Origin: Eubacteriales bacterium
GTDB taxonomy: Bacteria > Bacillota > Clostridia > Oscillospirales > CAG-272
Reading direction: 5' to 3'
DNA length: 64,000 bases
Assembly: GCA_045613985.1 (NCBI GenBank)
Contig: JAZLCA010000064.1
Coordinates: forward strand, 13,837 to 77,836
Each line of letters opens with the position of its first letter. Within the stretch, counting starts at the first letter, position 1. A model generated the notes under the pieces. The model did not search any database, had not been told where the DNA came from, and worked only from the letters and a program-made list of their open reading frames with translations. This document shows, piece by piece, positions 12,502 to 50,661 of the stretch. The position numbers and the translations under genes were made by a program.

Positions 12502-12589
12502 GCTATCAAAGTGTGGCACTATACCCGTTTGAGACTTCCTTTTTGACACGGTGCTGCGCCGAAAATCTGTTTTCAGAGAGGAAAATATT

Positions 12590-14401: not shown

Positions 14402-14430
14402 TTGACAAAGCTATAAATATTTGTTATAAT
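14402..14430 (+). promoter_or_regulatory. sigma-A consensus promoter (TTGACA-N17-TATAAT) of SBP-like gene 2
   Basis: Duplicate of the 12473-12501 promoter. Confidence 0.7.
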
Positions 14431-14518
14431 GCTATTAAGGTGTGGCACTATACCTGTTTGGGATTTTTCTGTTGACATGGTGCTGTGCCGCAAATCTATT
14501 TTCAGAGAGGAAAAGAAT

Positions 14519-24195: not shown

Positions 24196-24339
24196 GGAGT
24201 TTTGGAAAAAAGATGAAAAATCCTTGGTTGCGCGTATTTTCAAGATAGTTTTTGCCTTACGACGGGAGTTTATGCAAAATAAGAAAAGAGCTACCCCGTC
24301 GCCACAATACGGGGAACGGGGTAGCCGGGTTTGATTGGG

Positions 24340-30110: not shown

Positions 30111-31178
30111 ATGAAACGAGTGATATTTGCGTTGGCAACGGCGGTTGTGTGCAGTCTTCTCCTTTTTTGCGCCTGTCGCAAGGAGAACTCGTCCTTTCCT
30201 GCGGATACGGATCTTGCGCCTATCGATCTTCGCGTGGCTTTGAACGGCGAGCGGCCGACGGCCGAGGACTTTCTTTCGGACGAAGCGCGTACCCGCTGTC
30301 AGCAGGAGGGTGTGACGGTTGCATTTGCAGACATCCCCGATTTTGAAACGGTAGGAACGCATAAGGTGACGCTTCTTTTACGCGACAGTGAAGGAAATGA
30401 GAGAGAATTGCCGACGCGCATGGTGGTCGTAGAGGATACGACGCCCCCTGCCTTGATCGGCGTTGGAGAGATTTCCGCCCGGGTGGGCGAGGGATTGATC
30501 TTGCGTGCCGGCGTAAGTGCAACGGACGATTGCTTCGGAGAGGTGGAATGGACGGTTGACTCCTCGGCGGTGGATACGAGCCGCGCGGGGATTTATTCTG
30601 CGACGTATCGCGCGGTCGATGCCGTCGGCAACGTGACCGAACGGACGGTCTACGTGCATATTTACGAGCAAGAAATCACAGAACAGATGTTGTGGGACAA
30701 GCTCGATTCCGTATTGGAGGGATTGGTCGATAAGAATGCCGCCATCGAGCAAAAGTGTCGTGCCATTCACGCCTATGTGCAGTCAACGATCGGCTATTTT
30801 CCCATTTCGGACAAGACCGATCCTTTGCGTGCGGCTTATGACGCTTTGTTTGTCAAAGGAAAAGGGGATTGCTATTCCTATTTTTCGGCTGCCATGATGA
30901 TGCTCCGCCGATGCGGTATTGAATATTTGGAGATCGAGCGGACACATACGGAGGGTGAGGAGACTCACTTTTGGTTGATGGTCAACCTTGCGCCCAAAGG
31001 AAAGGACGCACGTTGGTATCACTTTGATCCGACGTTGGTCGAGGGGGGCGGCGCGGCAGGCAAGGGATGCCTGTTTACCGACACTCAACTGGATGAATAC
31101 AACGCCGTCGATCCCGGCTTTTACGATTACGAAAGAAACGATTATCCGCCCACCGCGACGGATATCATCACTCAATAA
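30111..31178 (+). CDS. Lipoprotein with Ig-like (DUF5011-type) and transglutaminase-like cysteine protease domains
   Basis: Start at MKRVIFALATAVVCSLLLFCAC (lipobox; RBS AAGGAGAGGGGG). DTTPP..ATDDCFGEV..AGIYSATYRAVDAVGN is Ig-like. GKGDCYSYFSAAMMMLR..THFWLMV..WYHFDP gives a transglutaminase-core Cys/His/Asp. Confidence 0.75.
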   Translation: MKRVIFALATAVVCSLLLFCACRKENSSFPADTDLAPIDLRVALNGERPTAEDFLSDEARTRCQQEGVTVAFADIPDFETVGTHKVTLLLRDSEGNERELPTRMVVVEDTTPPALIGVGEISARVGEGLILRAGVSATDDCFGEVEWTVDSSAVDTSRAGIYSATYRAVDAVGNVTERTVYVHIYEQEITEQMLWDKLDSVLEGLVDKNAAIEQKCRAIHAYVQSTIGYFPISDKTDPLRAAYDALFVKGKGDCYSYFSAAMMMLRRCGIEYLEIERTHTEGEETHFWLMVNLAPKGKDARWYHFDPTLVEGGGAAGKGCLFTDTQLDEYNAVDPGFYDYERNDYPPTATDIITQ

Positions 31179-31188
31179 GGAGGACGCC

Positions 31189-32703
31189 ATGCGCATCAAA
31201 AACGTACTGCAATATTTGGAACGAACCGCATTGCGTCTGCCCGATAAGATTGCCTTTTCGGACGGCGAAGGGGGACAAGCGCTGACCTTCCTTGAACTTT
31301 GGGATGCCGCCCGGCGCATCGGTTGCGGACTTTTAGAGCAGCATTTGAGCGGCGCACGGATAGCACTTCTAATGGATCGTCACCCCGCCGCCATCGCCGC
31401 CATGTTGGGAATTTTGTACGCGGGGGCGGTGTACGTTCCTCTCGATGCAACCATGCCCAAGGATCGTATATCCCGCGTTTTGTCCAGCGGTCAAGCGGCG
31501 GCCATCGTGTGCGACGATAAAAACCGCAAAGCCGCGGAAGAATACGGCCTGCCGATATGGCAAGCGGACATACTTGCCAAGTCTTGCGTGAACGAACAAG
31601 CCTTGGCTGCCGTCCGTGCCCGTCAGATCGATACCGATGCTGCGTATATCATCTTTACCTCGGGCTCGACCGGAGAGCCTAAGGGCGTGGTGGGCTGTCA
31701 CCGTGCCGTGATCGACTATGCTCAGGCGCTCATCCCCGCTCTTTCGCTGGATGAGGAGGCGATTTTCGGATGTCAATCGCCGCTGTATTTCGACGCGCCC
31801 CTCAAGGAGATCCTGGGGACGCTGGTGCTGGGCGCGACCACCTACCTGATCCCCCGCACGCTGTTTTCTTTCCCCGTTTTGCTGCTCGATTATTTGAACA
31901 AGCATAAGATAAATACCGTTTGCTGGGTGTCGTCGGCACTGTCAAACGTCTCGTCGCTGGGCGGATTGGACGCCTGCCCGCCCACCACGCTTTGCCGCGT
32001 GGTATTCGGCAGCGAAGCGTTGCCCATGCGGCATTATCTGGCGTGGCGCAATGCCTTGCCGGAGGCAGATTTTTACCAGCTGTACGGTCCGACCGAGGCA
32101 ACGGGAATGTCTTGCGTGTGGCGGGCGGATCGGGAGCTTGCATCGCAGGAGCGTATTCCCATTGGAGCACCGCTGGACAACACCGACCTGATTTTGCTGA
32201 GCGACTCGGGCGAGCGCATTTTGCCCTCGGTGGCGTGCGAGAGCGAGGTGGGCGAAATCTATCTGCGGGGCAGCTGTCTGACGCTGGGTTATGACCATAG
32301 CGACGAGCAAACATTTTGCGCGTTCGTACAAAATCCTCTGCACAATGCGTATCCCGAGACGGTCTATCGCACGGGAGATCTGGCCCGCTACAACGCGCGC
32401 GAGGAGCTGATATTTCTCGGCCGCCGCGACGGTCAGATCAAGCGCATGGGCCACCGCATCGAAACGGCGGAGATTGAGTTTTGTGCAGGCACTTGCGATG
32501 GCGTGGACGGAGCGATATGCCTTTTGACGAGGAAGGACGATCTCGTCTTATACTATACCGGCGCGGCCTGTGAAAATGAAGTACTGGAGACTTTGCGCTC
32601 CCGCCTGCCGCGGTATTATCTGCCCTCACGAGTGAAAAAGCTTGCGGCTTTTCCAAGGACGGACAACGGAAAGATTGACCGCCGGGCGCTGACGGAGGAA
32701 TGA
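31189..32703 (+). CDS. Amino acid adenylation enzyme, DltA-like carrier-protein ligase
   Basis: A-domain core motifs FTSGSTGEPKGV, YGPTE, YRTGD, GRRDGQIKRMGHRIE and NGKIDR. About 504 aa, like DltA. Substrate is not inferable by eye. Confidence 0.85.
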   Translation: MRIKNVLQYLERTALRLPDKIAFSDGEGGQALTFLELWDAARRIGCGLLEQHLSGARIALLMDRHPAAIAAMLGILYAGAVYVPLDATMPKDRISRVLSSGQAAAIVCDDKNRKAAEEYGLPIWQADILAKSCVNEQALAAVRARQIDTDAAYIIFTSGSTGEPKGVVGCHRAVIDYAQALIPALSLDEEAIFGCQSPLYFDAPLKEILGTLVLGATTYLIPRTLFSFPVLLLDYLNKHKINTVCWVSSALSNVSSLGGLDACPPTTLCRVVFGSEALPMRHYLAWRNALPEADFYQLYGPTEATGMSCVWRADRELASQERIPIGAPLDNTDLILLSDSGERILPSVACESEVGEIYLRGSCLTLGYDHSDEQTFCAFVQNPLHNAYPETVYRTGDLARYNAREELIFLGRRDGQIKRMGHRIETAEIEFCAGTCDGVDGAICLLTRKDDLVLYYTGAACENEVLETLRSRLPRYYLPSRVKKLAAFPRTDNGKIDRRALTEE

Positions 32704-32705
32704 TC

Positions 32706-32936
32706 ATGGAACAAAAAATCATGGAAATATTGCAGCAACTGCACCCCGAAATGGATATTTCGGCGGATGTTTGCCTGGTGGACGACGGGGTTCTGGACTC
32801 GTTGGACATCGTTACGCTTGTGACCGAGCTCAATGCGGCGTTTGATATTGCCATTCCGGCGGTGGAGATTCTGCCGACGAATTTCAATTCGGTCGGGGCA
32901 CTTGTCGCAATGATTGAGCGGCTGGAGGATGTGTGA
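32706..32936 (+). CDS. Acyl/D-alanyl carrier protein (DltC-like)
   Basis: About 77 aa, with the DSLD phosphopantetheine-attachment motif. The start overlaps the upstream stop (alternative ATG at 32700). Confidence 0.85.
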   Translation: MEQKIMEILQQLHPEMDISADVCLVDDGVLDSLDIVTLVTELNAAFDIAIPAVEILPTNFNSVGALVAMIERLEDV

Positions 32937-32995
32937 GGGAGAATCGGCACGGTCCTTTTGAAATTTTACTGAAATAATCGGAAAGGAGAGCGGTT

Positions 32996-34570
32996 GTGTC
33001 GCTGTCAATATCGTTTGTATTGTTTCTTGCGGTCATGATACCGCTCTATTTTCTCCTGCCTCGCCGTTGGCAGTGGCAGACCTTGTTGGTGGGGAGCTTG
33101 GTGTTTTACAGCTTCTCCGGTTGGCAAAATTTACTTGTCCTGACGGTCTTGGCAGTCGTAACGTATCTGTTTGGCCGCCTGCTGGGGCGTTCGGTTGAGC
33201 GGCAAACGCAAACGCTGGCTGCCCGTCGTGCCGATGGCTCGTGGGACAAGGCAACGCGCAAAGAGTACCGTGACCGTTGCGTGATCCGTCGCAAGTGGCT
33301 GCTGGCCGCGGGAATCGCCCTGGCCCTTTCTTTGCTTGCCGGTTTCAAATACGAAAGCTTTTTTGTTCGCACCTTCCATATTCCGGCGGGTACCTCCCAC
33401 CTCGGCCCCATGCTCCCGGTGCCGCTCGGCATCTCCTATGTCACGCTCAGCGCCATCAGCTACATGACCGACGTGGCCAGAGGACAGCTGGAGTGTGAAA
33501 AAAAGCCCGCCAAGCTTGCGCTGTACATATTCTATTTTCCCCAGATGTGGCAAGGCCCCATCCATCGCTATGGCGAGCTTGCGCCGAGACTTTTTGCGCC
33601 CCACGCATTTGACTTGCAACGGGCCCTTCGGGGCGGGCTGCGCGCGCTTGGGGGCGGAGTCAAGAAGGTGGTCGTTGCCAATACGGTGGGTGTGGCTGTT
33701 TTGACGATCAAGGAAACGCCCTCGGATCTGGGCGGCACCTGGACGTGGCTGATGATTCTTTTGTACAGCATACAGATCTACGCCGATTTTACGGGCGGCA
33801 TGGACATCGCTCTAGGTGTCTCCCACGCCCTCGGGATCGATCTGTACGAAAACTTCGACCGTCCCTTCGCCGCCTGCTCCGTCGCCGATTATTGGCGGCG
33901 CTGGCACAGATCCATGGGCCGCTTTTTCACCGATTACGTGTTTTATCCGCTGTCGACCAGCCGAGCCGCCGCCAAAATGGCAAGGCTGTTCCGCCGTCTG
34001 CCCTTGTGGTGGGCGACGCTGACCACATGGGTACTGACGGGCCTTTGGCATGGCGCAGGCTGGAATTTTGTCCTTTGGGGGCTTTGCAACGGACTGTTTA
34101 TTCTGCTGTCGCAGGAATTGCGCCCTTTGCGCCGACGCTTGAAAGAAAAATTCCCTCGCATTTGTGCGTCGCGCCTTGGGACATGGCTCTGCTGTGCAGG
34201 CACGCTGTGGACCGTCGGCCTTTTCCGCACGTTGGATATGTATCCCGATGCGGGTGTACCTTTGGCTCTTTGGTGGCGGGCATTCACGCCTGCGGCATTC
34301 GCTCGCTTGTTTGACCTCTCGCTCTGGTCGTCGTTGGGCCTCTCGCTTGCCGAGTGGGTGCTGATCGGTCTGGGCGTCGTTGTCATGTGGCTGGTAGGAC
34401 GTGCGACGCCGCGCGTCGGAGATGCCGATGCCGTATCCCCCGCTGACCGCCTGCTGCGCAAGCCCTTGCTGTTTGCCGTCGTTTGCGCTTTGATGGTGGT
34501 TTGTATTGCCGTATTCGGACATTACGGCATGGGTTATAACGCTATGGACTTTATTTACGGACAATTCTGA
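32996..34570 (+). CDS. MBOAT-family membrane O-acyltransferase (DltB/AlgI-like)
   Basis: Polytopic. Contains YADFTGGMDIALG and the conserved WRRWHRSMGRFFTDYVFYPL His region. GTG start after GAAAGGAGAG. Confidence 0.9.
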   Translation: MSLSISFVLFLAVMIPLYFLLPRRWQWQTLLVGSLVFYSFSGWQNLLVLTVLAVVTYLFGRLLGRSVERQTQTLAARRADGSWDKATRKEYRDRCVIRRKWLLAAGIALALSLLAGFKYESFFVRTFHIPAGTSHLGPMLPVPLGISYVTLSAISYMTDVARGQLECEKKPAKLALYIFYFPQMWQGPIHRYGELAPRLFAPHAFDLQRALRGGLRALGGGVKKVVVANTVGVAVLTIKETPSDLGGTWTWLMILLYSIQIYADFTGGMDIALGVSHALGIDLYENFDRPFAACSVADYWRRWHRSMGRFFTDYVFYPLSTSRAAAKMARLFRRLPLWWATLTTWVLTGLWHGAGWNFVLWGLCNGLFILLSQELRPLRRRLKEKFPRICASRLGTWLCCAGTLWTVGLFRTLDMYPDAGVPLALWWRAFTPAAFARLFDLSLWSSLGLSLAEWVLIGLGVVVMWLVGRATPRVGDADAVSPADRLLRKPLLFAVVCALMVVCIAVFGHYGMGYNAMDFIYGQF

Positions 34571-34618
34571 TGCGTCGCCGCGAGCGATAACTGATTTTTT
34601 ACGAAAGGAGAACGGGCA

Positions 34619-35668
34619 ATGAAAAAGAAAAAATGGATATGGGCCGCGCTTGTTTTTGTTATCCTGACGGGCGGTTTGTTGACCTTGGCGCAGGCGTTGC
34701 TCGTTCCGCACGACAAGTCTGCCAATCCCGAAGCGTTTTTGCTGCAGGACTATTTCGATGCCGACGTGGCTATGGACGAGGTCGTGTTTCTCGGCGACTG
34801 CGAGGTGTACGAGGCCTTCTCGCCTGTCGCTCTGTGGCAGGAGTACGGTATTACCTCCCGCGTGTGCGGCACGCCGCAGCAGCTCTTGTGGCACAGCTAT
34901 GCGATTCTGGAGGAAATCCTGGATCGATCCTCCCCGCGCGTGGTGGTGCTGGGCGTGTACGGCCTGATCTACAACAGCCCGCAGAGCGAGGCCTATAACC
35001 GCATGGTGTTTGATCATCTTCCGGCATCTCCGACCAAATGGAAGGTGTTGGGTGACGCCATGACCGAGGGGGAGAGCCTTGCTTCGTACGTCTTTCCTCT
35101 GTTGCGCTATCACGACCGTTGGTCGGAGCTTACCCGGCGCGACGTGACGACGTTGTTTGAAGCGCAAGAGCCCGCATCGGTGCGGGGATATCGGATGCAG
35201 ACCGACATTGTGCCGGGCGAAGCTCCCAATCACGAGGGCGCCCTGCCGCCGCGCGAGGATGCCTTTGGGGGCATGGCGCTGGATTATTTCGACCGTATCG
35301 TGTCGCTGTGCCGTGATGCGGGAGCGGAACTGGTGCTGGTCAAAGCCCCGACCGACTCCTGGCGTTACCCTTGGCACGACGAATACGAGTCGCAGGTGAT
35401 CAAGCTTGCGGAAAAATATCAACTGCCGTACTACAATTTTTTGAATGATATCGACTCGATCGGCCTTGACTATGCGACCGACACCTACGATGGAGGACTC
35501 CATCTGAACGTGTACGGCGCGGAAAAGCTGTCACACTATTTCGGCAGGATCTTGATGGGAAATTACGAGCTGACCGACGCTCGTGCCGATCGGGATGCGG
35601 CCGCAGATTGGACCGAGGATATTGCCCGTTATGAGCAACAAAAAAACGCAAAGGGGGAAGTAAAATGA
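34619..35668 (+). CDS. Membrane-anchored SGNH/DltD-like acyl-transfer protein
   Basis: N-terminal TM anchor. Block-I-like VVFLGDCEVY (Cys where Ser is usual) and C-terminal DGGLHLN (DxxH-like). Confidence 0.6.
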   Translation: MKKKKWIWAALVFVILTGGLLTLAQALLVPHDKSANPEAFLLQDYFDADVAMDEVVFLGDCEVYEAFSPVALWQEYGITSRVCGTPQQLLWHSYAILEEILDRSSPRVVVLGVYGLIYNSPQSEAYNRMVFDHLPASPTKWKVLGDAMTEGESLASYVFPLLRYHDRWSELTRRDVTTLFEAQEPASVRGYRMQTDIVPGEAPNHEGALPPREDAFGGMALDYFDRIVSLCRDAGAELVLVKAPTDSWRYPWHDEYESQVIKLAEKYQLPYYNFLNDIDSIGLDYATDTYDGGLHLNVYGAEKLSHYFGRILMGNYELTDARADRDAAADWTEDIARYEQQKNAKGEVK

Positions 35669-36141
35669 AGCGAATGATCGCGCTGATCGCCATGGCGCTC
35701 GTCTTACTTTGTGCTTGCACACCCCAACCTGCCCCGGCAGAGCCGATGCCCCTTTTTCTGACCTATCGAGGGGTGGACCTGACGGTCGGCATGGCGGCAC
35801 AGGAGGCGATCGCCGCCCTGGGAAACGACTATACTCTCAAGGAATCCGAGAGCTGCGCGGGCCAGGGGATGGATCGGATGTATACTTACCCCTCGTTGAG
35901 CCTGTACGTGTTTGCCCCGACCAACGGCCAAGCAATCGTGTCGTCCGTGTCGTATACCGACGACGGCGTTCGGACGGCGCAGGGACTTTGCATCGGTTGC
36001 TCTTCGGCAGACGTGATTTCTGCGATGGGAGAGCCGGATGAGAAAAATGACACTCGCTTACTCTATCGTGGCCAGGGGGCAACCTTGACGTTTGGCCTGC
36101 ACGGCGGTGTTGTGGTGAATATCGTGCTGACGGGGGAGTAA
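35665..36141 (+). CDS. Small lipoprotein of unknown function (last gene of the dlt-like operon)
   Basis: MKRMIALIAMALVLLCAC lipobox. ATGA overlap with the upstream stop. Confidence 0.65.
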   Translation: MKRMIALIAMALVLLCACTPQPAPAEPMPLFLTYRGVDLTVGMAAQEAIAALGNDYTLKESESCAGQGMDRMYTYPSLSLYVFAPTNGQAIVSSVSYTDDGVRTAQGLCIGCSSADVISAMGEPDEKNDTRLLYRGQGATLTFGLHGGVVVNIVLTGE

Positions 36142-36237: not shown

Positions 36238-36266
36238 TTGACAATCAAGAAAAAATATGCTACAAT
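36238..36266 (+). promoter_or_regulatory. sigma-A-like promoter of T-box/ileS (TTGACA-N17-TACAAT)
   Basis: Hexamers at 36238-36243 and 36261-36266. Confidence 0.65.
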
Positions 36267-36269
36267 AAC

Positions 36270-36590
36270 TTCAAATGCTATGATGAAGAAGCAAAGTGCC
36301 GAAAACTCACAGAGAGCGCGGATTTGGTGAGACCGCGCAGCGGACGACACGGCGTATCCCTTCGGAGCAGGAAGGATCAAATCGCGAGGGGAGAGCCTCC
36401 CGCAAAAGTAATCCGCCCCGTCCCCGCCGCGTTAAGGCGTACGGCGCAGTGCGAAAATCGCATTGACGCCTGAGTGGTGTCCCTGACACAAAATGAGTGG
36501 TACCGCGGAAGATTCTTCCGTCTCATGGTCGCGTGCGGCTGTGGGGCGTTTTTTGTTTCCCGCCGCGAAAATTTATTCGTCAAAAATCAA
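36270..36590 (+). promoter_or_regulatory. T-box leader (Ile-specific candidate) controlling ileS
   Basis: Stem I opening AGAGAG..GGTGAGA (36311-). Candidate specifier ATC followed by A at 36376-36379. T-box core AATGAGTGGTACCGCGG at 36492-36508. T-run at 36549-36554. Confidence 0.8.
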
Positions 36591-36611
36591 AACCAAAGGA
36601 GAAAACAAAAA

Positions 36612-39422
36612 ATGGCCAAAGATTACAAAAACACACTGAATATGCCCACAACGTCGTTCGATATGCGGGCCAATCTTCCCATGCGCGAGCCTAAAATGCT
36701 GGAGTACTGGAACTCCATCCATCTGTACGATCAAATGCTGGAGAACAATGCGGACAAGCCTTTGTTCGTGTTGCACGACGGCCCTCCCTTTTCCAACGGT
36801 AACATCCACATGGGCCACGCCCTGAACAAAACCCTGAAGGATTTCATCAACAAATCCCGCAGCATGATGGGCTATCGCGTCCCCTTCGTTCCCGGCTGGG
36901 ATAACCACGGCATGCCCATCGAGTCTGCCATCATCAAAAAGAACAAGCTCAACCGCAAGGCAATGAGTATTCCCGAATTCCGCAGTGCCTGTGAAGCATT
37001 CGCTCAGGATTTCATCAATATCCAGAAGGAGCAGATGAAGCGTCTGGGTCTGACGGCGGATTGGGAGCATCCCTATACCACTATGGACCCTGCGTTTGAG
37101 GCGCGTGAGGTCAAGGTGTTCGGTGAGATGTTCCGCAAGGGCTATATCTACAAGGGCTTGAAGCCCGTTTACTGGTGCCCCAAGGATGAAACGGCACTGG
37201 CCGAGGCGGAGATCGAATATAAGACGGATAAGTGTACGTCGATCTACGTTAAGTTCCGCGTCAACGATGACAAGGGCGTGTTGGCTGACGTCTGCGATCT
37301 GTCCAAGACCTACTTCATCATCTGGACAACGACCACCTGGACACTGCCCGGCAACCTTGCCATCGCTCTCAATCCCGACGAGAGCTATGCTGTCGTTAAG
37401 GCAAACGACGAATATTATGTGATTGCCGAGGCACTGACCGAAAAGACCATGAGCGAGGGTGGCGTCGAGAGCTACGAGATCGTTGCTACTATGCCCGGCC
37501 GTGAGCTGGAGTTCATCAAGACGCAGCATCCCTTCCTCGACCGTGAGAGCGTCGTGCTGATGGCCGATTACGTCACCATGGACAGCGGTACCGGCTGTGT
37601 TCATACCGCTCCCGGCTTCGGTGCGGACGACTATCAGACCTGCAAGCGCTACGGCATTGATATCATCGTTCCCGTCGACGATCGCGGCTGTCAGACCGAG
37701 GACGCAGGCAAATTTGCCGGTCTTTACTATGAAAAATCCAACGAGGCGATCCTGGCTGACCTGAAGGAAACGGGCGCGCTGTTTGCCTCCAAGGAATTTG
37801 AGCATGAATATCCTCACTGCTGGAGATGTAAGTCTCCCATCATCTTCCGCACAACTCCCCAGTGATTCTGCTCGGTCGATGCCTTCCGCGCTGATGCGGT
37901 CAAGGCCTGCGACGACGTAACCTGGATGCCCGCATGGGGCGGTGAGCGCATGAAGCAGATGCTCGGTGAGCGCGCCGATTGGTGCATCTCGCGTCAGCGT
38001 CATTGGGGTCTGCCCATTCCCGTATTCTACTGCGAGGACTGCAAGGAGACCATCTGCACTCCCGAGACCATCAACAAGGTATCCGCGATGTTTGCACAGC
38101 ACGGCTCCAACTGCTGGTTCTCCATGGATGCCAAGGATCTGTTGCCCGAGGGCTACGTTTGCCCCAAGTGCGGCAAGACCCACTTTGTCAAGGAGCAGAA
38201 TACGCTGGACGGTTGGTTCGATTCGGGTTCCACCCACTTTGCCGTTCTGCAGGACGAGGGTAACAAGGGTTGGCCCGAGCATCATTGGCCGGCAGACCTG
38301 TACCTGGAGGGTGCCGACCAGTATCGCGGTTGGTTCCAGGCATCTTTGCTGACTGCCATCGGTACGGGCGGCGGTACGACCGCTCCCTTCAAGTCCGTTC
38401 TCACCCACGGTTGGGTCGTTGACGGCGAAGGCAGAGCCATGCATAAGTCGCTGGGTAACGGCGTCGATCCTCAGGACATGGTCGCCAAGTACGGCGCCGA
38501 CCTGGTTCGTTTGTGGGTTGCTTCCGCCGACTATCAGGTGGACGTCCGCTGCTCCGATAATATTTTCAAGCAGCTGTCCGAGTCCTACCGTAAGATTCGT
38601 AACACCGCCCGCATCATTCTGGCAAACCTGAACGATTTCGATCCCGACCGCGATATGGTCGCTCCCGAAAATATGCAGGAGATCGACCGGTGGCTGCTCT
38701 CCCGCATGAACGAGTTTGTCCGTCGCAGCCGCGAAAATTACGATAATTACAGCTTCCACAGCATCTCCCGCGACCTGACCAACTTCTGCACGACCGATCT
38801 GTCCAAGCTGTACGTCGATATCACCAAGGACCGCGTCTACACCGAGCGTGCCGATTCGGCCGCCCGCCGCTCCGCACAGAGCGCGATGTATCTGGTGCTG
38901 TCTGCGATGGTACGCGTAATGGCGCCTCTGTTGGCCTTTACCGCCGAGGAGATCTGGCAGGCCATGCCCCACGCGGCATCCGATAACAAGGCGAGCGTTT
39001 TCTTCAATGATATGCCCGCTTGCGACGAGTCGTTGACCTTCCCCGAGCTGGCAGAGCACTGGGATGCGCTGTTTGATCTGCGCGACGACGTTATGAAGGC
39101 ACTCGAGCTTGCTCGTGCCGACAAGAAGATCGGTAAGTCGCTGGATGCCAAGCTGACGATCTATACTGAAAATGAAGAGCAGAAGGCTCTGTTGACCTCC
39201 TTTGGCGACGATCTGAAGACGGTATTTATCGTCTCGGGCGTCAAGGTTGAGAGCGGCAAGGCGCCCGAAGGTGCCCTGACCGAAACCACCGCCGGCATTG
39301 CTGTGCTGGTTGAGGGGGCAGACGGCTGCAAGTGCGACCGTTGCTGGGCTTACTCCACCGAGGGTAAGCAGGACGAGGACGGTTTCCTGTGCGCTCGCTG
39401 CCAAGCCATTCTGGAGGGCTGA
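36612..39422 (+). CDS. ileS: Isoleucine--tRNA ligase, interrupted by a single in-frame TGA at 37863-37865
   Basis: MAKDYKNTLNMPTTSFDMRANLP.., HMGHALNK (HIGH), CWRCKSPIIFRTTPQ*FCSVD, WCISRQRHWG, KMHKSLGN-like AMHKSLGN (KMSKS), and C-terminal CxxC pairs. Both track ORFs (36474-37865 and 37926-39422) are in the same frame. Confidence 0.9.
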
Positions 39423-39425
39423 TGC

Positions 39426-40010
39426 ATGAGCGACTTGACACGCAACGATAAAAGCAGGATCGACCGCGGCCGTCCCTGGTATTGGCTGTTGATCTCGCTG
39501 GCGGGTGTCTTGCTGGACCAGGTGTCTAAATGGCTGTGTATGGCGTATCTGAAGCCGGTCGGAAGCGTTTATATCATTCCGGGGCTTCTCAAATTGACCT
39601 ATCTGGAAAATCGGGGAGCTGCCTTTGGCAGCTTCTCCGATCACCGTTGGGTGTTTATGGTGTTTTCCACCGTTGCCATCGTGGGCGTGACGGTCTACCT
39701 GATCGCCTTTTCCGAGCGGAACCGTTTGCTCCGCTGGGCGCTGGCCCTTATTATCAGCGGCGGCATTGGCAATATGATCGACCGAGTCTCGCTCGGATAC
39801 GTCGTTGACATGATCGACTTTTACGGCATCTGGCCCTACATTTTCAACGTGGCCGACAGCTTCGTTTGTGTTGGTGCCGGTCTTGCGGTGTTGTACTGCT
39901 TGATCGAGATGCAAAAGGAACTGGAACAGCAAAAAGAAAAAAAGGATGCCGACGCTTGTGGTGAAGACGCACCGCAGGCGGCTGACGAAAAAGGAGAGGA
40001 CGAGGCATGA
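39426..40010 (+). CDS. lspA: Lipoprotein signal peptidase II
   Basis: YLENRGAAFG, GGIGNMIDR and FNVADSFVCVG motifs, with 4 TM segments. Confidence 0.9.
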   Translation: MSDLTRNDKSRIDRGRPWYWLLISLAGVLLDQVSKWLCMAYLKPVGSVYIIPGLLKLTYLENRGAAFGSFSDHRWVFMVFSTVAIVGVTVYLIAFSERNRLLRWALALIISGGIGNMIDRVSLGYVVDMIDFYGIWPYIFNVADSFVCVGAGLAVLYCLIEMQKELEQQKEKKDADACGEDAPQAADEKGEDEA

Positions 40011-40945
40011 TCTACCCCGTAGACGCCGCCCATGCGGGTCTTCGCGCTGACGTGTTTGCTGCCGAGGTCGGAGGGGTTTCGCGCTCCGCCGCCGCCCGTT
40101 TGATGGAGGAAGGCTGTATTTTGCTCAACGCTCGTCCCGTCACCAAAAACGTCAAGCTTTGCCAGGGCGACGAACTGACGATCGAGCTGCCTGAGCCCGA
40201 ACCGTGTGAAGCTCTGCCTGAGAATATCCCGTTGGATATCGTTTATGAGGACGATGATATCATCGTGGTAAACAAGCCCGTTGGTATGGTGGTCCATCCC
40301 GCCGCGGGCAATCCGAGCGGCACCCTTGTCAATGCGCTGCTGTACCATTGCGGCGATCAACTTTCGGGTGTTGGCGGAGTTATCCGCCCCGGCATCGTTC
40401 ACCGCATCGATAAGGATACCAGCGGACTGTTGGTCGTTGCCAAAAACGACGCAGCTCACTTGTCTTTGTCGGAGCAGCTCAAAACCCATACGGTCAGCCG
40501 CGTATACGAGGCCATCGCGCTGGGCAACCTGAAGACGGATGCGGGGACGGTCAATGCCCCCATCGGACGCCATCCGACCGATCGCAAGAAAATGGCGGTC
40601 GTGCGAGGGGAAGGCTTGAACGCCCGCGAGGCGATCACGCATTACACGGTCGTGGAGCGATTTGGTCACATGACGCACCTGCGGTGTGAATTGGAAACGG
40701 GACGTACCCATCAGATCCGCGTTCATATGGCAAGCATAGGGCATCCCCTTTTGGGCGACGGCGTGTACGGCGGAGGCAATACCCGCTTTGAAGCCGATCA
40801 CCGCGCCTGGATCACGGGGCAATGCCTGCACGCTGGAAAACTGCGCCTGATCCATCCGAGGACGGGCGAGGCGATGCAATTTGGAGCACCTATGCCGCCC
40901 GAGATGCAAAAAATACTTGATATTTTACGAAGACAAGCACAATAA
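40007..40945 (+). CDS. rluD: RluA-family 23S rRNA pseudouridine synthase (RluD-like)
   Basis: N-terminal S4-like domain. Catalytic HRIDKDTSGLLVVAKN and TGRTHQIRVH. Confidence 0.88.
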   Translation: MIYPVDAAHAGLRADVFAAEVGGVSRSAAARLMEEGCILLNARPVTKNVKLCQGDELTIELPEPEPCEALPENIPLDIVYEDDDIIVVNKPVGMVVHPAAGNPSGTLVNALLYHCGDQLSGVGGVIRPGIVHRIDKDTSGLLVVAKNDAAHLSLSEQLKTHTVSRVYEAIALGNLKTDAGTVNAPIGRHPTDRKKMAVVRGEGLNAREAITHYTVVERFGHMTHLRCELETGRTHQIRVHMASIGHPLLGDGVYGGGNTRFEADHRAWITGQCLHAGKLRLIHPRTGEAMQFGAPMPPEMQKILDILRRQAQ

Positions 40946-42419: not shown

Positions 42420-44156
42420 ATGAAATTCAAGTCGTTGATCGCGCTGATTTTGGCGTTGCTGATGCTTTTGAGCGTTGTTGCCTGCAAGCAACCCGCAACG
42501 GACGATCTGCCGCCGGAAGGGCAGGACAAGGAGCCCGGTACGCCGGATGAAAAGGATCCGACACAGGATCCGTCGGACGATCCCGTCAAAGAGAAGGACC
42601 CCAGTCAGTTGTATGTCGTTTATGATTCTGCGACCGAATATAAGCTGATCCGCGGCGATTCTGCTAAGACGGAGATCAAGAGTGCATTCACCAAGCTCAG
42701 CTCCGCCATCGCGGAAGCAACGGGCGTCTCCGTTCCCATGGAAACCGACTGGGCGGAGGATGGCGAGATGGAGATTTTGGTGGGTAAGACCAACCGTCCC
42801 GAATCCAAGGAAGCGCTGCAGGAGCTGGAGGATCTTCAGATCATCGGGGAGTTGGAGGGAGACGGCTTTCTGATCCGCGTCAAAAAACAGACCATTATCA
42901 TCATTGGCACGACGGATGAAAGTACGGTCATGGGCGTCGATTACTTTATTTCCCGCTACGTAAAGCAGTCGACGGGTGAGTTTTCCATTCCCAAATCGAC
43001 ACTGGTTTATATGTCCCGTACCAAAGTGCTGTTGAATCGAGATTACGTGGGCTCGCCTCTCAAAAAGCAGTACAGCGATTACGTCAGCACTTATGTCGAG
43101 GAACAGCTGCTCAGCTTTGACGAGCTGGATGTGCCCGGTGTACAGCTGTTCGAAAATCATTCCATCGACAACGATTATCAGCGTGAGGGTTACGGTGCCA
43201 CCCGCTTCGTGATGACGACGGGCGAGAGAAAGCTGACCCAGCTGATGTGGGGCAAGGGCGTCGCCTTTGATGCTGCGGTGGAGGATCTGAAGAAGAGCAC
43301 ACTTAAATTGTGGGTATACATCGACAACGACGATATGATCGCCTGCGACCACGACGACGTATACGGAAAAATCCAGAAGGACCAGGCAACGCTGTTCTTC
43401 CGTCTGATGGATAACAAGGGACGCATTCATTCCTGGAACCACACCCTGACGGGAGACGGCTGGCACGAAATCGAGCTGTCCTTCAATATTCACAACGGTG
43501 TGGATGCAAAATTTGATTACAGCCATATTGCCAATTTCGGCGTCATGGTGGCCGCAGACAAGGGAGCCATCATCGAGCTGGATGACTTGCGCTTGGTTAC
43601 TTATGAAAGCGATCACGTGCCGGAAGAATTGCCCGAGGGCGATCGTTTGATCACCGACGGCGAATACGACGCTTTTGACGGCGCGATGATCCAGGAGTGG
43701 TACGGCTGCTCCTACGATCTGGAAAACAAGAAATTCGGCAATTCCTCTTTGCGAAACGAGGGAGATTCGTCCGTCAACGACTTCCGTACCATCATCAGCA
43801 ATCTCAATATTCCCATGAACTATCAGAACGACACTCTGGTATTCTGGCTCAAGGTAGGGCAACTGAAAACGATCAACTACTTCTTCATTGAGCTTAACCA
43901 GGTTCAGGATAATCACGAGTACGAAAATAGCTTCACGGTTGCAGACCTGCAAAAGTATGGCCTTTCCAATGTCGACGATGAATGGTGCGAGATTCGTATT
44001 CCTTTGCGGGAATTCCAGAAGAAGCTGTCGCCGGATAAGTATGGCAATGATGAAAATATCACGCTGTACGCCTTCCGCTTCGTTACCTATTCGGTCGGCA
44101 GTAAGCCCTATGAGATGAATCTGGACCGCGTTTATCTGACCTCGAATGCAGATTAA
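42420..44156 (+). CDS. Lipoprotein of unknown function with Pro/Asp/Glu-rich tether
   Basis: MKFKSLIALILALLMLLSVVAC lipobox. PPEGQDKEPGTPDEKDPTQDPSDDP tether. No motif I can assign. Confidence 0.65.
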   Translation: MKFKSLIALILALLMLLSVVACKQPATDDLPPEGQDKEPGTPDEKDPTQDPSDDPVKEKDPSQLYVVYDSATEYKLIRGDSAKTEIKSAFTKLSSAIAEATGVSVPMETDWAEDGEMEILVGKTNRPESKEALQELEDLQIIGELEGDGFLIRVKKQTIIIIGTTDESTVMGVDYFISRYVKQSTGEFSIPKSTLVYMSRTKVLLNRDYVGSPLKKQYSDYVSTYVEEQLLSFDELDVPGVQLFENHSIDNDYQREGYGATRFVMTTGERKLTQLMWGKGVAFDAAVEDLKKSTLKLWVYIDNDDMIACDHDDVYGKIQKDQATLFFRLMDNKGRIHSWNHTLTGDGWHEIELSFNIHNGVDAKFDYSHIANFGVMVAADKGAIIELDDLRLVTYESDHVPEELPEGDRLITDGEYDAFDGAMIQEWYGCSYDLENKKFGNSSLRNEGDSSVNDFRTIISNLNIPMNYQNDTLVFWLKVGQLKTINYFFIELNQVQDNHEYENSFTVADLQKYGLSNVDDEWCEIRIPLREFQKKLSPDKYGNDENITLYAFRFVTYSVGSKPYEMNLDRVYLTSNAD

Positions 44157-45457: not shown

Positions 45458-46519
45458 ATGAGTGAAAAAAGCATGAAGGTTTTTTTGAGTGAAGGCAAGA
45501 GTCGCGGCGGCATCGTTCGCCTTCCCGTGCCGACCCCCACGGGCAACATGGTGCTGGTAAAGGTGGCCTATTGCGGCATCTGCGGCACCGATCAGGACCT
45601 GTTTTCCGGCGAATGCAGCTTCGCTGAAAACGGACAGGTCACGTATCCGGTCCGTTTGGGACACGAGTGGTCGGGCGTAGTGGAAGCGGTTGGCGAGGAC
45701 GTGACGAATTTCGCCAAGGGCGACGGTGTCGTGGGTGACAACGCCGTCAGCTGCGGCAAGTGCGAGGCCTGCCGGGCAGGGGATTTTGCACACTGTGCCC
45801 ATATGCTCAACGTGGGTACCATCGATCCGGTCTACGACGGCGCATTTTGCGAGTACTATATCATTCCCGCGCATCATCTGCATAAGATCCCGGCGGGCAT
45901 CTCGCTCAAAGAGGCGTCGCTGGCCGAGCCTTTGTCGGTGGCGTACGGCGGTATCAAGCACATGAATATTACGAAAAACTCCACCGTTGCCGTCATCGGT
46001 ACGGGATGCATCGGCATGGCTGCCGTCGTGCTGGCCAAGTGCCTGGGCGCTAAGACGGTGTGGATGATCGGCCGCAACGAAAGTAAACTGGCGGCGGCGC
46101 AGGCACTGGGAGCTGAAATCATCAATATCAAACAGTGCGATGCGGTGACCGAGGTTATGGCTCAAACGGGCGGTCGCGGTGCGGACTTCGTGCTGGAATG
46201 CTCGGGTGCCCGCGAGACCTTTAAGCAGGCCATTGACCTGGCCGCATTCCGTGCAACAGTCGCGCTGATCGGCTTCTATGAGCACAAGGAAAACGACGTC
46301 AACGTCGATACCATGGTTGCCAAGGCCCTGACGTTGATCGGTGTCATGGGCGAGATGGGCAACATGGCAGGAGCTCTTAACATTCTGAAGGAGCATCAGC
46401 CCAACCTCCTTCCCATCATCACACACGAATTGGATTTTGACGATTGCATCGTCGGCTTTACCAGAAAGAATTATCCCGACGCGGTCAAGATCGCGGTTAA
46501 GATCGGAGGGGAGAATTGA
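45458..46519 (+). CDS. Zinc-dependent alcohol/polyol dehydrogenase (MDR family)
   Basis: GICGTDQDLFSG, GHEWSGVV, and the structural-Zn CGKCEACRAGDFAHC. Confidence 0.85.
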   Translation: MSEKSMKVFLSEGKSRGGIVRLPVPTPTGNMVLVKVAYCGICGTDQDLFSGECSFAENGQVTYPVRLGHEWSGVVEAVGEDVTNFAKGDGVVGDNAVSCGKCEACRAGDFAHCAHMLNVGTIDPVYDGAFCEYYIIPAHHLHKIPAGISLKEASLAEPLSVAYGGIKHMNITKNSTVAVIGTGCIGMAAVVLAKCLGAKTVWMIGRNESKLAAAQALGAEIINIKQCDAVTEVMAQTGGRGADFVLECSGARETFKQAIDLAAFRATVALIGFYEHKENDVNVDTMVAKALTLIGVMGEMGNMAGALNILKEHQPNLLPIITHELDFDDCIVGFTRKNYPDAVKIAVKIGGEN

Positions 46520-46520
46520 T

Positions 46521-47516
46521 ATGAGCAAAATTGCTATTATCGGAAAACAGCAGCCCTTGGTGATCCGCCAGCGTATCAAGGAGTATTTGGAGTCTGAGGG
46601 ACATACGGCGGACATTCTGTACATGCCCACCCGCAACGCGAGTGAGTGGATTGATGAATTGAAGGGCTACAACGCCATCATTTCGGCGGGCGAAAAATTC
46701 CCGGGTATCGTTTTTGAATCTCTCAAAGGCGACCTCAAGCTTTTGTCGCGCTACGGTGTCGGTACGGATGAGATCGACAAGGTGACGGCGGCAAATTGTG
46801 GCGTGGCGGTCTGCAACGCGGCAGGCTCGCTGTCTACCGCCGTGGCCGAGTGTGCCATGGGAATCATCCTTTCGTTGCTTCGCAGTATCCCCACCTCCGA
46901 CACGGAGGTCAGAGCAGGGGACTGGAGCCGCTTCTTTGAGAGCAAGACGGGCTCGCAGCTGGAGGGCAAAACGGTGGGTATCATCGGCTTCGGCGATATC
47001 TCCAAGGCGCTCGCCAAAATGCTGACCGGCTTTGATTGCCGTGTCATTGCCTATGATATTTACTGGGACGAGGAGACCGCCCATCGGCTGAACGTCACCT
47101 ACGCAGATATCCCGACCATTCAAAAAGAGGCCGATATCATCAGCATCCACGTGCCTTCCACTCCTCAAACGGACGGCATGATCAACAAAGAATTTTTGCA
47201 AGGCATGAAGCGCACGGCCTTTTTGGTCAACACCGCAAGAGGCCGCTTGATCGTCGCGCAGGACCTGGCCGACGCGCTCAACAACGGCGTGATCGCGGGC
47301 GCGGGTATGGACGTCTTCTCACCCGAGCCTCCTCTGCCCGATAACCCCCTGCTGACCGCCAAAAACACCGTGCTGTTGCCTCATACGGGTGCTTGCACCA
47401 TCGAAAGCCATGAGAAAGCGGGTATGATGGCAGCGCGCAACGTCGCAGACTTTTTCGCAGGGCGCACGGTCAAGACCATTCTCAATCCCGACTACAAAAA
47501 TCACACGGAGGTATGA
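46521..47516 (+). CDS. D-isomer-specific 2-hydroxyacid dehydrogenase family protein
   Basis: GIIGFGDISKALA (NAD fold), NTARG, and the MDVFSPEP..LPHTG catalytic region. Confidence 0.85.
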   Translation: MSKIAIIGKQQPLVIRQRIKEYLESEGHTADILYMPTRNASEWIDELKGYNAIISAGEKFPGIVFESLKGDLKLLSRYGVGTDEIDKVTAANCGVAVCNAAGSLSTAVAECAMGIILSLLRSIPTSDTEVRAGDWSRFFESKTGSQLEGKTVGIIGFGDISKALAKMLTGFDCRVIAYDIYWDEETAHRLNVTYADIPTIQKEADIISIHVPSTPQTDGMINKEFLQGMKRTAFLVNTARGRLIVAQDLADALNNGVIAGAGMDVFSPEPPLPDNPLLTAKNTVLLPHTGACTIESHEKAGMMAARNVADFFAGRTVKTILNPDYKNHTEV

Positions 47517-47520
47517 CGAT

Positions 47521-48177
47521 ATGAACGATTGCAGAGAATTGCGCCAGGACGTGATTGATACCTGTCTGTGGTTAAAGGCGAACGGCTTTGTCTTTTCCAC
47601 CTGGGGTAATATCAGCGTGAGATTGGATGACGGAAATATTCTGATCACCCCCTCCAAGGTAGACTATGATACCATGACGCCCGAGGATCTGGTGGTGCTT
47701 GCCCCCGACGGCACGCAGGTGTCGGGTCATCGCCTGTCCACCAGCGAGCGTGAGATCCACCGCCGCGTCATGAATAAGCGTCCCGACGTGGGCGCGATCA
47801 TCCATATGCACTCGCCCTACGGCATGGCGGCATCGGCAAGAGACGAGGGTATCCCCGTCTTTACCGAGGAGATGTGCCAGCTTTTGGGCGGAGCCATCCC
47901 CATGTCCAGCGAGTTCGTGCCCTCGGATATGCATGAAAAATTGGGCATCGTGGTGTCTGAATCGGTGACGGCGGAAGGCAACGCCATTCTCATCCGCAAC
48001 CACGGTCCGATGTGCTTCGGGCGCAATCTTGCGGAGGCAAGAGTGTGCTGTCAGGTCACTGAAAAAACCTGTAAATTGTATCTGCATCTGTTGGCGGCGG
48101 GCGGTATCAAGCTGATCGAAGAGCAGTATATCGCGCGCGGCAGAGATTATTTTCTCAACGGCTACGGAAAATCTTAA
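47521..48177 (+). CDS. Class II aldolase/adducin-family protein
   Basis: 218 aa. WGNISVR, the SSEREIHRRV..IHMHSP His cluster, and IRNHGPMCFG. Confidence 0.8.
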   Translation: MNDCRELRQDVIDTCLWLKANGFVFSTWGNISVRLDDGNILITPSKVDYDTMTPEDLVVLAPDGTQVSGHRLSTSEREIHRRVMNKRPDVGAIIHMHSPYGMAASARDEGIPVFTEEMCQLLGGAIPMSSEFVPSDMHEKLGIVVSESVTAEGNAILIRNHGPMCFGRNLAEARVCCQVTEKTCKLYLHLLAAGGIKLIEEQYIARGRDYFLNGYGKS

Positions 48178-48194
48178 TTTGGGAGGAATAGAAC

Positions 48195-49214
48195 ATGAAA
48201 GTTGTAACCATGGGCGAGATGATGATTCGTTTTATGCCCAAAAACAATCTGCGCTTCGAACAGGCCACCGAGTTTGAGGCCTACTACGGCGGTGACGAGT
48301 CCATTGTGGCAGTATCGCTCTCCCGCTTTGGCCTGGAATCCCGCTACGTCACCAAGCTCCCGCTGAACCCTTTGGGTCAGACGGCACTGAACAAATTGCG
48401 CGAGCAGGGCGTAGATACGTCCTACATCGTACGCGGCGGCGAGCGTCTGGGACTGAACTTCTATGAAAACGGCGCATCGGTGCGTGCATCCAACGTGCTG
48501 TATGACCGCAAGTATTCGGCGATTTCGCAGGCCGACGTCGAGGAGTTTGACTTTGACGGTATTTTCTCGGATGCCGATTGGTTCCACGTTGCAGGCATTA
48601 CCCCTGCCATCAGCCCCAAGGCGGCTTTGCTCGTTGAGGCGGCCATGAAGGCGGCTAAGGCGCACGGCGTGACGGTCAGCGTTGACCTCAACTACCGCGC
48701 CAAGCTGTGGACGCCTGAAGAGGCACAGGCGGTCATGATTCCCCTGATGCAGTACGTCGACGTTTGCATCGGAAACGAGGAGGATGCCGAGAAGGTGTTG
48801 GGCTATAAGCCCGAAAACACCGATATCACCAAGGGCGAGCTGGATATCGAAGCTTACAAAGAGGTATTCATCAAGCTCAAGGAGCGTTTCGGATTTAAGT
48901 ACATCGGCTCCACCCTGCGCGAGAGCTACTCCGCATCGGATAACGGCTGGTCGGCTATGATCTACGACGGCAAAGAATTTTACCGTTCGAGAAATTACAG
49001 CATCCACCTGGTTGACCGAGGCGGCGGAGGTGCATCCTTTGCAGCGGGCATGATCTACGGTCTTCTGAATGGCATGTCCATTGCGGATACCTGCGAGTTT
49101 GCTACGGCCTCCTCGGCCCTCAAGCAGACAATCGTGGGAGATTTTAACCTGGCAACGCTGGACGAAGTTAAAAAGTTGATGGGCGGCGACGCATCGGGCC
49201 GCGTCAACCGATAA
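48195..49214 (+). CDS. kdgK: 2-dehydro-3-deoxygluconokinase (PfkB family)
   Basis: MKVVTMGEMMIRF..YYGGDESIVAV.. and C-terminal DRGGGGASFAAG (PfkB signature 2-like). Confidence 0.8.
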   Translation: MKVVTMGEMMIRFMPKNNLRFEQATEFEAYYGGDESIVAVSLSRFGLESRYVTKLPLNPLGQTALNKLREQGVDTSYIVRGGERLGLNFYENGASVRASNVLYDRKYSAISQADVEEFDFDGIFSDADWFHVAGITPAISPKAALLVEAAMKAAKAHGVTVSVDLNYRAKLWTPEEAQAVMIPLMQYVDVCIGNEEDAEKVLGYKPENTDITKGELDIEAYKEVFIKLKERFGFKYIGSTLRESYSASDNGWSAMIYDGKEFYRSRNYSIHLVDRGGGGASFAAGMIYGLLNGMSIADTCEFATASSALKQTIVGDFNLATLDEVKKLMGGDASGRVNR

Positions 49215-49224
49215 GAGGTGCGAT

Positions 49225-49668
49225 ATGATTATTGATAACATTAAAAATGCGAGCAAATATTTCGGTCTTGGCAAAGGCTTTGAGGCCGCGCTGACCTATC
49301 TTGCCAACTACGAAGGGAAGGCCGATGAAAAAGCGGACATCCCTGTGTGCGAGGGGGTTATGGTCAAGTGCCGCCCCTATATGACCAAGGCCGTCGAGGA
49401 TTGCGCTTTCGAGGCACACGAAAAATACGCCGACATCCATTTCGTCGTATCGGGATGCGAGTGCATCGGCTACGCGCCTACCGATTCCTTGACGGTTGTC
49501 CGCCGCGACGAAGCAAAGGATATGATCTATTTGGAGGGCGAGGGTGTCAATTTGCCCCTCAACGCCGGTGATTTTATGATCACCCTTCCCGACGATGCCC
49601 ATATGCCTTGCATCAAGCAGGACGAGAGCGTATTCTGCGCCAAATTGGTTGCCAAGATTTTACTGTAA
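49225..49668 (+). CDS. YhcH/YjgK/YiaL-family (DUF386) protein
   Basis: 147 aa. MIIDNIKNASKYFGLGKGFEAALTYL.. is the typical N-terminus. Cupin-like. Confidence 0.7.
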   Translation: MIIDNIKNASKYFGLGKGFEAALTYLANYEGKADEKADIPVCEGVMVKCRPYMTKAVEDCAFEAHEKYADIHFVVSGCECIGYAPTDSLTVVRRDEAKDMIYLEGEGVNLPLNAGDFMITLPDDAHMPCIKQDESVFCAKLVAKILL

Positions 49669-50420: not shown

Positions 50421-50522
50421 AATTCTCATTTTGGGAAATAATCAATTCTATGGAATCATAAAATCGCCCTCTTAAAATTTGTTTTATCATATCCGATTTA
50501 AAAAGTCAATCCTCTTGCAGTC

Positions 50523-50568
50523 AAATCCCCTTGCTTTGCAAATACTAACATCACAAAAGTGTGAAAAA
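50523..50568 (+). repeat. Direct repeat, copy 1 (decayed duplicate of the spoVT promoter/leader segment)
   Basis: Hand alignment with 53161-53206 gives 38/46 identical positions (32 of the first 35). Confidence 0.8.
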
Positions 50569-50569
50569 C

Positions 50570-50598
50570 TTGACATTCTAACGCAAAAATGTTATAAT
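50570..50598 (+). promoter_or_regulatory. sigma-A consensus promoter (TTGACA-N17-TATAAT) of the Cys-repeat protein gene
   Basis: Perfect hexamers at 50570-50575 and 50593-50598. Confidence 0.65.
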
Positions 50599-50661
50599 CA
50601 AAAAAACGACTTTTGTCAGTTGTATTTTCTGCGTTTTTTTAATCAGAAAGGTAACCATGCT

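Follow-up and report, generated by a model that had tools for sequence, protein, structure and literature searches.

We analysed a stretch of 64,000 nucleotides (nt) of a Eubacteriales bacterium of the GTDB lineage CAG-272 (contig JAZLCA010000064.1, positions 13,837 to 77,836), in the following called the window. It carries ileS, the gene for isoleucyl-tRNA synthetase (IleRS), in which a single in-frame TGA replaces codon 418. This TGA most likely does not represent the working ileS of a viable cell. On balance, it is probably a base error (arising in the consensus, in the assembly or from template damage), or else a minority variant that is not fixed, in a one-off assembly. The gene itself is a chromosomal housekeeping type-1 IleRS gene of an uncultured, Oscillospiraceae-like gut bacterium of the Clostridia. 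We infer the artefact from what was observed: the stop, the conservation of its position, genes that normally terminate in TGA, intact selection on the gene and the clustering of two base changes.

The interrupted reading frame of ileS

ileS comprises 936 codons on the plus strand (36612..39422), from an ATG at 36612 to a terminal TGA at 39420-39422. In continuous translation, the only in-frame break is the TGA at 37863-37865, and the plus strand reads ACT CCC CAG TGA TTC TGC at 37854-37871. The open reading frames (ORFs) 36474..37865 and 37926..39422 share a common frame, and translation across the break gives ..CWRCKSPIIFRTTPQ*FCSVDAF... The sequence context of the stop is ...ACTCCCCAGTGATTCTGC... 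The original prediction, made from the letters of the window, had described two same-frame ileS ORFs parted by one TGA, and the sequence and its continuous translation bear this out. Relative to the TGG of related genomes, the TGA is a single G-to-A change at 37865, and the base following it (+4) is T. The gene has 22 TGG codons versus this one internal TGA.

The part before the stop (codons 1-417, 36612..37862, plus strand) contains the HIGH motif, the first half of the Rossmann fold, the editing domain and a CWRC Zn motif. It matched TIGR00392 at profile positions 2-423 (492.7 bits) and PF00133 at positions 1-205, and its editing domain matched PF13603. The part after the stop (codons 419-936 and the terminal TGA, 37866..39422, plus strand) contains the second half of the Rossmann fold, the AMHKS motif, the anticodon-binding domain and a C-terminal Zn finger. 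It matched TIGR00392 at positions 425-860 (433.9 bits), PF00133 at positions 193-413, PF08264 and PF06827. The break between the halves amounts to one missing position of the TIGR00392 profile. When summed, the halves are well above the cut-off of this ileS equivalog (621.4), while either half alone is below it. The uninterrupted reading frame expected of a TIGR00392 ileS is broken by the one TGA at codon 418.

The product of 417 amino acids (aa) is the gene called in the NCBI record. Its catalytic domain is halved, and the anticodon-binding domain and the Zn finger lie past the stop; therefore, a 417-residue product would be unable to charge tRNA.

The class I motifs are in place: HIGH is present as HMGH, and AMHKS, the usual form in the clade (117 of 133 sequences), stands at the KMSKS position. 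The C-terminal Zn finger marks the enzyme as type 1 (PF06827, 23.3 bits versus a cut-off of 21.3). The best solved relatives were 8c9e and 1ffy (917-921 aa; E 1e-76 to 1e-79), and the 1032-aa 8c8u followed with E 2e-37. Profiles of MupA and MupB scored far under their cut-offs. After repair of the stop, the IleRS has thousands of database homologues. The top ones are 91% identical, and each of the closest ones is 936 aa long.

The stop could also divide the enzyme into two working pieces, with residues 1-417 assembling non-covalently with a C-terminal fragment whose translation restarts at Met439. Reassembly in vivo is reportedly possible for E. coli IleRS divided at many different sites (Shiba and Schimmel, PNAS 1992), and the first in-frame start after the TGA, the ATG of Met439 (37926..37928, plus strand), is found 60 nt past the stop. 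However, there is no start codon in 37866-37925 and no Shine-Dalgarno sequence ahead of 37926. With a restart at Met439, 21 residues would be missing, among them the invariant Trp418-Phe419. Moreover, no relative is split at codon 418, and a search of the literature on split IleRS yielded nothing usable. We consider such a split enzyme very improbable.

The minus strand opposite ileS is open over a long distance. An ORF of 1119 aa (36573-39932, minus strand) is antisense to the whole of ileS and codon-aligned with it. It was rejected as a gene: it is a shadow of codon bias and is open only because ileS has no TTA, CTA or TCA codons. Comparable long shadow ORFs were seen opposite other long genes, e.g. 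at 24331-26394 (plus strand) opposite a 1039-aa ABC/FtsX gene.

Conservation of codon 418 and selection on the gene

Codon 418 was compared across 80 loci from species-representative genomes and 80 metagenome loci, 159 of which were scored. Trp was found in 157 of the 159 related loci, and the two others, one with Phe and one with Tyr, are distant sequences. None of the 159 had a stop at this position. In the loci from species-representative genomes, Trp was present in 80 of 80, and a stop or frameshift was present in none. The same holds for the top database homologues, with Trp in 120 of 120. The four closest relatives (L001, L161, L163 and L164) have TGG at codon 418, and QWF is also found in the solved IleRS structures 8c9e, 1ffy and 8wnf. 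The original prediction had placed the TGA at a conserved Trp and had proposed a comparison of orthologues as a check. With this comparison, the conserved Trp was confirmed, and the objection that the position might be variable falls away.

A second private change is located close to the stop. Codon 414 (37851..37853, plus strand) is ACA (Thr) in the window and Ala (GCN) in relatives, which use GCA or GCT. In the codon alignment, this corresponds to a G-to-A change at 37851 that is private to the window and precedes the stop-making G-to-A at 37865 by 14 nt. Ala was found in 132 of 132 related loci. All 120 top homologues contain FRATPQWF or YRATPQWF, and Thr at codon 414 is private to the ileS of the window. 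The earlier statement that everything apart from the TGA looks intact was correct for the motifs, the promoter and the ribosome-binding site; it missed A414T at this invariant Ala.

Private changes were counted in an alignment of 133 ileS sequences, using the 227 columns with a conservation of 97% or more. Besides the stop, the ileS of the window deviates privately at two of them, A414T and L702F (C-to-T at 38715), compared with 0-1 deviations in close relatives. Trp418 is conserved in 130 of 132 loci. Apart from position 418 itself, the stretch of 4 codons on either side of it contains only four conserved columns, and, computed post hoc, one of the two remaining private deviations would fall into this stretch by chance with a probability of ~0.035.

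Two G-to-A changes on the same strand, within 15 nt and at nearly invariant residues, suggest one correlated local event. The G-to-A behind A414T probably stems from the same event as the one that made the stop. Candidates are low depth on a template that was poor or damaged, a consensus that took in a stray read or variant, and a clustered mutation. Two independently selected substitutions at 414 and 418 are less likely.

Selection was measured as dN/dS (the ratio of non-synonymous to synonymous substitution rates) by the Nei-Gojobori method. L001, L161 and L163 (~85% identical at the nucleotide level) were used as relatives and L164 as an outgroup. For the whole gene, dN/dS was 0.06-0.08 against the three relatives and 0.115 against L164, and the intact relatives gave 0.035-0.106 among themselves. 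For the part downstream of the stop, the values were 0.066-0.10 against the three relatives, with 0.035-0.086 for the intact pairs of those three. Against the outgroup, the downstream part gave 0.148, and the intact pairs gave 0.12-0.14. Both halves thus had dN/dS values like those of intact pairs, and there was no frameshift and no second stop, as a decaying pseudogene would have. An old pseudogene is rejected by dN/dS and by the counts of private substitutions. As purifying selection is strong on both sides of the stop, the change is either extremely recent, functionally silent or not real. A local misassembly or recombination was considered as well and is unsupported, as divergence around codon 418 is not raised.

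An extremely recent change could mean that this copy was freshly inactivated while a second IleRS is encoded elsewhere, e.g. by a horizontally acquired type-2 ileS of the mupirocin-resistant type. The three private changes at conserved sites (A414T, W418* and L702F, versus 0-1 in relatives) fit a brief period of relaxed constraint. However, dN/dS is unrelaxed in both halves, the frame has neither a frameshift nor a second stop and the leader is undecayed. No second ileS was found within the 64-kb window, and we know of no ileS1/ileS2 pair in the clade of the window. The locus is a core chromosomal housekeeping region, with L21-Prp-L27, a gyrB/parE-like gene, tsaD and dnaB/dnaI-like genes in the window, rather than a mobile element with an extra copy. 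Some Firmicutes such as Bacillaceae have both ileS1 and ileS2, and such pairs offer a precedent for the backup of a dead ileS1 (bioRxiv 10.1101/2022.02.09.479832; PMC10485003). Unlike the situation here, Bacilli with both genes always retain an intact ileS1, and bacteria generally depend on one ileS (bioRxiv 10.1101/2022.02.09.479832). Overall, a second IleRS, which would demand that the gene was sampled right after its inactivation, is rather improbable.

No second assembly of the same species was found in the collections (protein look-ups, homologue search, GTDB species genomes and metagenome contigs). Exact-protein look-ups of the 417-aa and 498-aa ileS fragments, of lspA and of rluD likewise returned no independent assembly of the species. 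The closest ileS was 91% identical in the homologue search, 91% in the GTDB species genomes and 72% in the metagenome contigs, the last on a partial match (L154). RluD, HAD, MBOAT and the 349-aa protein of the window are each the sole member of their cluster among ~15 billion proteins. The relatives are without exception metagenome-assembled genomes (MAGs) from ruminant and other animal guts, and, judging from them, the source assembly is probably a MAG too.

Broken ileS genes also occur among the relatives. Frameshifts were found in L142 (about 3599-3606), L147 (about 1454-1463), P0127 and P0129, corresponding to ~2% of the assemblies examined. They were recognised as two high-scoring segment pairs in different frames or as out-of-frame C-terminal tails. 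This is too frequent for genuine breakage of an essential gene and gives a rough base rate of artefactual disruption. A generally error-prone assembly is unsupported, as no other broken gene was found among those compared. The 26 other syntenic genes (27.9-49.2 kb) are full-length and stop-free compared with L163 and L161. Pfam coverage is complete for the window genes that match a family (~20 more beyond the syntenic set), and RluD, LspA and HAD of the window show no private changes at conserved columns.

Taken together, a base error or unfixed variant is favoured because selection is not relaxed, regulation is intact and nothing else is broken in 64 kb. It is further favoured by the singleton assembly, the ~2% base rate of broken ileS, the clustered pair of G-to-A changes and the essential, single-copy nature of the gene. 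ileS is normally a standalone essential gene, and bacteria generally rely on one ileS (bioRxiv 10.1101/2022.02.09.479832); therefore, a true null should not be the majority allele.

Several points weigh against this explanation. The base error is deduced from the assembled sequence, the clustering statistic was formed post hoc, and the remainder of the window is clean, unlike a generally poor assembly. Substitution errors in a short-read consensus are rare at normal coverage. Moreover, in-frame stops occur in bacteria as real, short-lived polymorphisms (PMC7918605). UGA is the leakiest stop and is mainly read as Trp (PMC11126739), which would here restore the wild-type residue.

TGA as a terminator and possible read-through

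In the codon-usage gene map, the stops of the window are 25 TAA and 20 TGA, one of the 20 being the internal stop of ileS. TGA ends ~19 other predicted genes, i.e. ~43% of the genes here. At least eight genes end in TGA exactly at the C-termini of their orthologues in L163 and L161: Prp, the AMP-binding (dltA-like) gene, the PP-binding gene, MBOAT, the 349-aa gene, ileS itself, the HAD hydrolase and the alcohol dehydrogenase (ADH). This agrees with the original prediction, which had named the dltA-like, prp and HAD genes as examples of TGA used as a normal stop. No other real gene that is split by a single stop or contains an internal TGA was found in the 64-kb window.

As TGA is a terminator here, a reassignment of UGA of the code-4 type is excluded. 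More broadly, UGA as a sense codon, through Trp reassignment (genetic code 4, i.e. translation table 4) or as selenocysteine, is hardly conceivable. The Trp position of codon 418 is the one point in its favour, and it is opposed by the genes ending in TGA at orthologous C-termini, ileS among them, and by the ratio of 22 TGG to one internal TGA within ileS. The homologues carry Trp at codon 418, not Cys or selenocysteine. The 100 nt past the TGA showed no stable or unusual RNA structure and no hairpin like a selenocysteine insertion sequence (SECIS); their folding was like that of shuffled sequences (z = +0.69). The only tRNA genes in the window are tRNA-Lys(TTT) and tRNA-Arg(CCT), and tRNA-Trp and prfB lie outside it.

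The regulatory region of ileS bears on whether a real nonsense allele could be sustained. A strong promoter drives ileS, a T-box leader specific for Ile gates it, and lspA and rluD come after it. The sigma-70-type promoter of the operon (36238..36266, plus strand; TTGACA, 17 nt, TG-TACAAT) matches the consensus at 11 of 12 positions and has an extended -10 TG, and its hexamers are kept in four relatives. The T-box leader (36271..36528, plus strand) matched the full RF00230 model (positions 1-219, 81.1 bits, E 5e-18), with an AUC (Ile) specifier and the T-box sequence AAUGAGUGGUACCGCGG. The T-box control stated in the original prediction was therefore supported by a real match with a fitting specifier. 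The score, however, is under the RF00230 gathering score (81.1 versus 93), and a default Rfam scan misses the leader. The sub-threshold score is due to insertions of ~20 and ~27 nt relative to the model.

Across the five aligned leaders (the window and four relatives), GCGTATCCCTTC and the T-box sequence are invariant. The leader terminator (36519..36558, plus strand) consists of a hairpin with a 13-bp stem (36519-36548) and a T-run, TTTTTTGTTT. It overlaps the 3' strand of the antiterminator, and CGUCUCAU is common to both, according to the antiterminator helix of the Rfam alignment. The leader thus combines a specifier that matches the gene, a T-box sequence and a mutually exclusive antiterminator and terminator, and these are conserved in the five leaders. 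The ribosome-binding site AAAGGAG (36595..36601, plus strand) is placed 10 nt ahead of the ileS ATG and is kept in relatives. Promoter, T-box elements, terminator and ribosome-binding site are all invariant or nearly so in the leaders of the four relatives. The order of promoter, Stem I with AUC specifier, T-box sequence, antiterminator/terminator and ileS is that of the T-box ileS genes of Firmicutes. The leader differs from these only by its sub-threshold Rfam score, which is caused by the insertions, and is otherwise typical.

With such a leader, the TGA might be a real, leaky nonsense allele. tRNA-Trp (CCA) would occasionally decode UGA-418 as Trp and recreate the wild-type enzyme, with TTPQWFCSVDAFR as the product peptide. 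Low IleRS would leave tRNA-Ile uncharged, which presumably would increase read-through at the T-box and hence ileS transcription, and a small fraction of read-through at the stop could then supply enough enzyme. As the codon lost to the stop is precisely one for Trp, the product of read-through would be the native protein. The promoter and T-box leader are intact, so the feedback loop exists, and the downstream half of ileS shows no decay. In E. coli, TGA is the most read-through-prone stop, and Trp is almost always inserted (reporter and proteome data, PMC11126739). Near-cognate UGA decoding has been described for a tRNA-Trp with a 4-bp anticodon stem (PMC13092985), and in-frame stops under purifying selection are reported to be widespread in bacteria (PMC7918605).

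The UGA at a Trp position is what codon 418 shares with the leaky UGA of E. coli. In contrast to those cases, the window shows no sign of read-through in ileS, and a +4 T raises termination efficiency in E. coli and disfavours read-through (PMC11126739). T is also the base found most often behind the terminal TGA stops of the window (8 of 19). The sequence downstream has no RNA structure that would stimulate read-through (z = +0.69, as above). Efficient UGA termination is needed, as TGA ends ~43% of the genes. The invariant Ala414 is also altered, and an essential enzyme at a level of a few per cent would be strongly counter-selected. A leaky allele is hence a tentative possibility, clearly behind a base error or unfixed variant. 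It is doubtful that a viable gut bacterium of the Clostridia carries a genuine UGA in its only ileS, with rescue by tRNA-Trp and over-induction through the T-box buffering the nonsense mutation.

The closest published comparison is the set of genes with in-frame stops of Belinky et al. 2021 (PMC7918605). ileS resembles them in having one nonsense substitution and an otherwise low dN/dS. Many such stops are artefacts, and genuine ones last no longer than population polymorphisms do (PMC7918605). Unlike the retained stops of that study, for which sharing between orthologues of two or more genomes served to rule out artefacts, the stop in ileS is shared with no other genome (0 of 159 relatives), and the gene is an essential, single-copy aminoacyl-tRNA synthetase. 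The original prediction had listed an error, read-through and a second ileS as options. These were the right candidates; it left them unranked, and the evidence presented here favours an error.

Flanking genes and consequences for annotation

ileS is followed by lspA (signal peptidase II; 39426..40010, plus strand), which was identified by TIGR00077 (117.8 bits) and by synteny. It starts 4 nt past the ileS stop, and its Shine-Dalgarno sequence (GGAGGG) lies within the final codons of ileS. The next gene encodes an RluD-like pseudouridine synthase (40007..40945, plus strand; TIGR00005, 327.6 bits) and overlaps the end of lspA. This rluD is the last gene of the conserved ileS-lspA-rluD block, and 312 of its 312 residues are collinear with those of relatives. 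Synteny with relatives covers ileS-lspA-rluD-HAD and, upstream, L21-Prp-L27 and the dlt-like genes.

The dlt-like cluster (30114-36141) is located directly upstream of the ileS promoter and is syntenic in L163. It encodes a transglutaminase-core protein, an AMP-binding enzyme, a small PP-binding carrier, an MBOAT acyltransferase and two proteins of 349 aa and 158 aa without a family match.

Downstream, a sugar-acid utilisation block (45458-49668) encodes a Zn-dependent ADH, a 2-hydroxyacid dehydrogenase, a class II aldolase, a PfkB/KDG-type kinase and a DUF386 protein. Its proteins are 90-99% identical to those of L161, compared with 91% for ileS and 57-85% for several flanking genes, and the corresponding 90% clusters have ~90-100 members. 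The conservation of the block is unusually high, and it may be exchanged between species.

Large predicted proteins without a credible Pfam match are encoded on the plus strand at 12551-14260 (569 aa), 14429-16153 (574 aa), 42420-44156 (578 aa) and 50479-53151 (890 aa). The first three show a strong coding signal, and the 890-aa protein was missed by the codon-usage gene map. The 578-aa protein is kept in relatives at 58-75% identity.

Every explanation considered for codon 418 is of a known kind: a pseudogene call due to an internal stop, a transient nonsense polymorphism with UGA-to-Trp leakage, or a fresh pseudogene. There is nothing out of the ordinary in ileS, in its control by a T-box or in its linkage to lspA. 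For annotation, the locus is best regarded as a single ileS carrying a suspect base rather than as two genes or as evidence of an unusual genetic code. More generally, when a singleton assembly shows one isolated internal stop in an essential gene, the stop needs confirmation at the level of reads. A real allele would provide a natural example of UGA-to-Trp leakiness rescuing an essential enzyme and of a T-box whose autoregulation buffers loss-of-function mutations. Even so, each of these two components is familiar by itself, and the advance would be a modest one.

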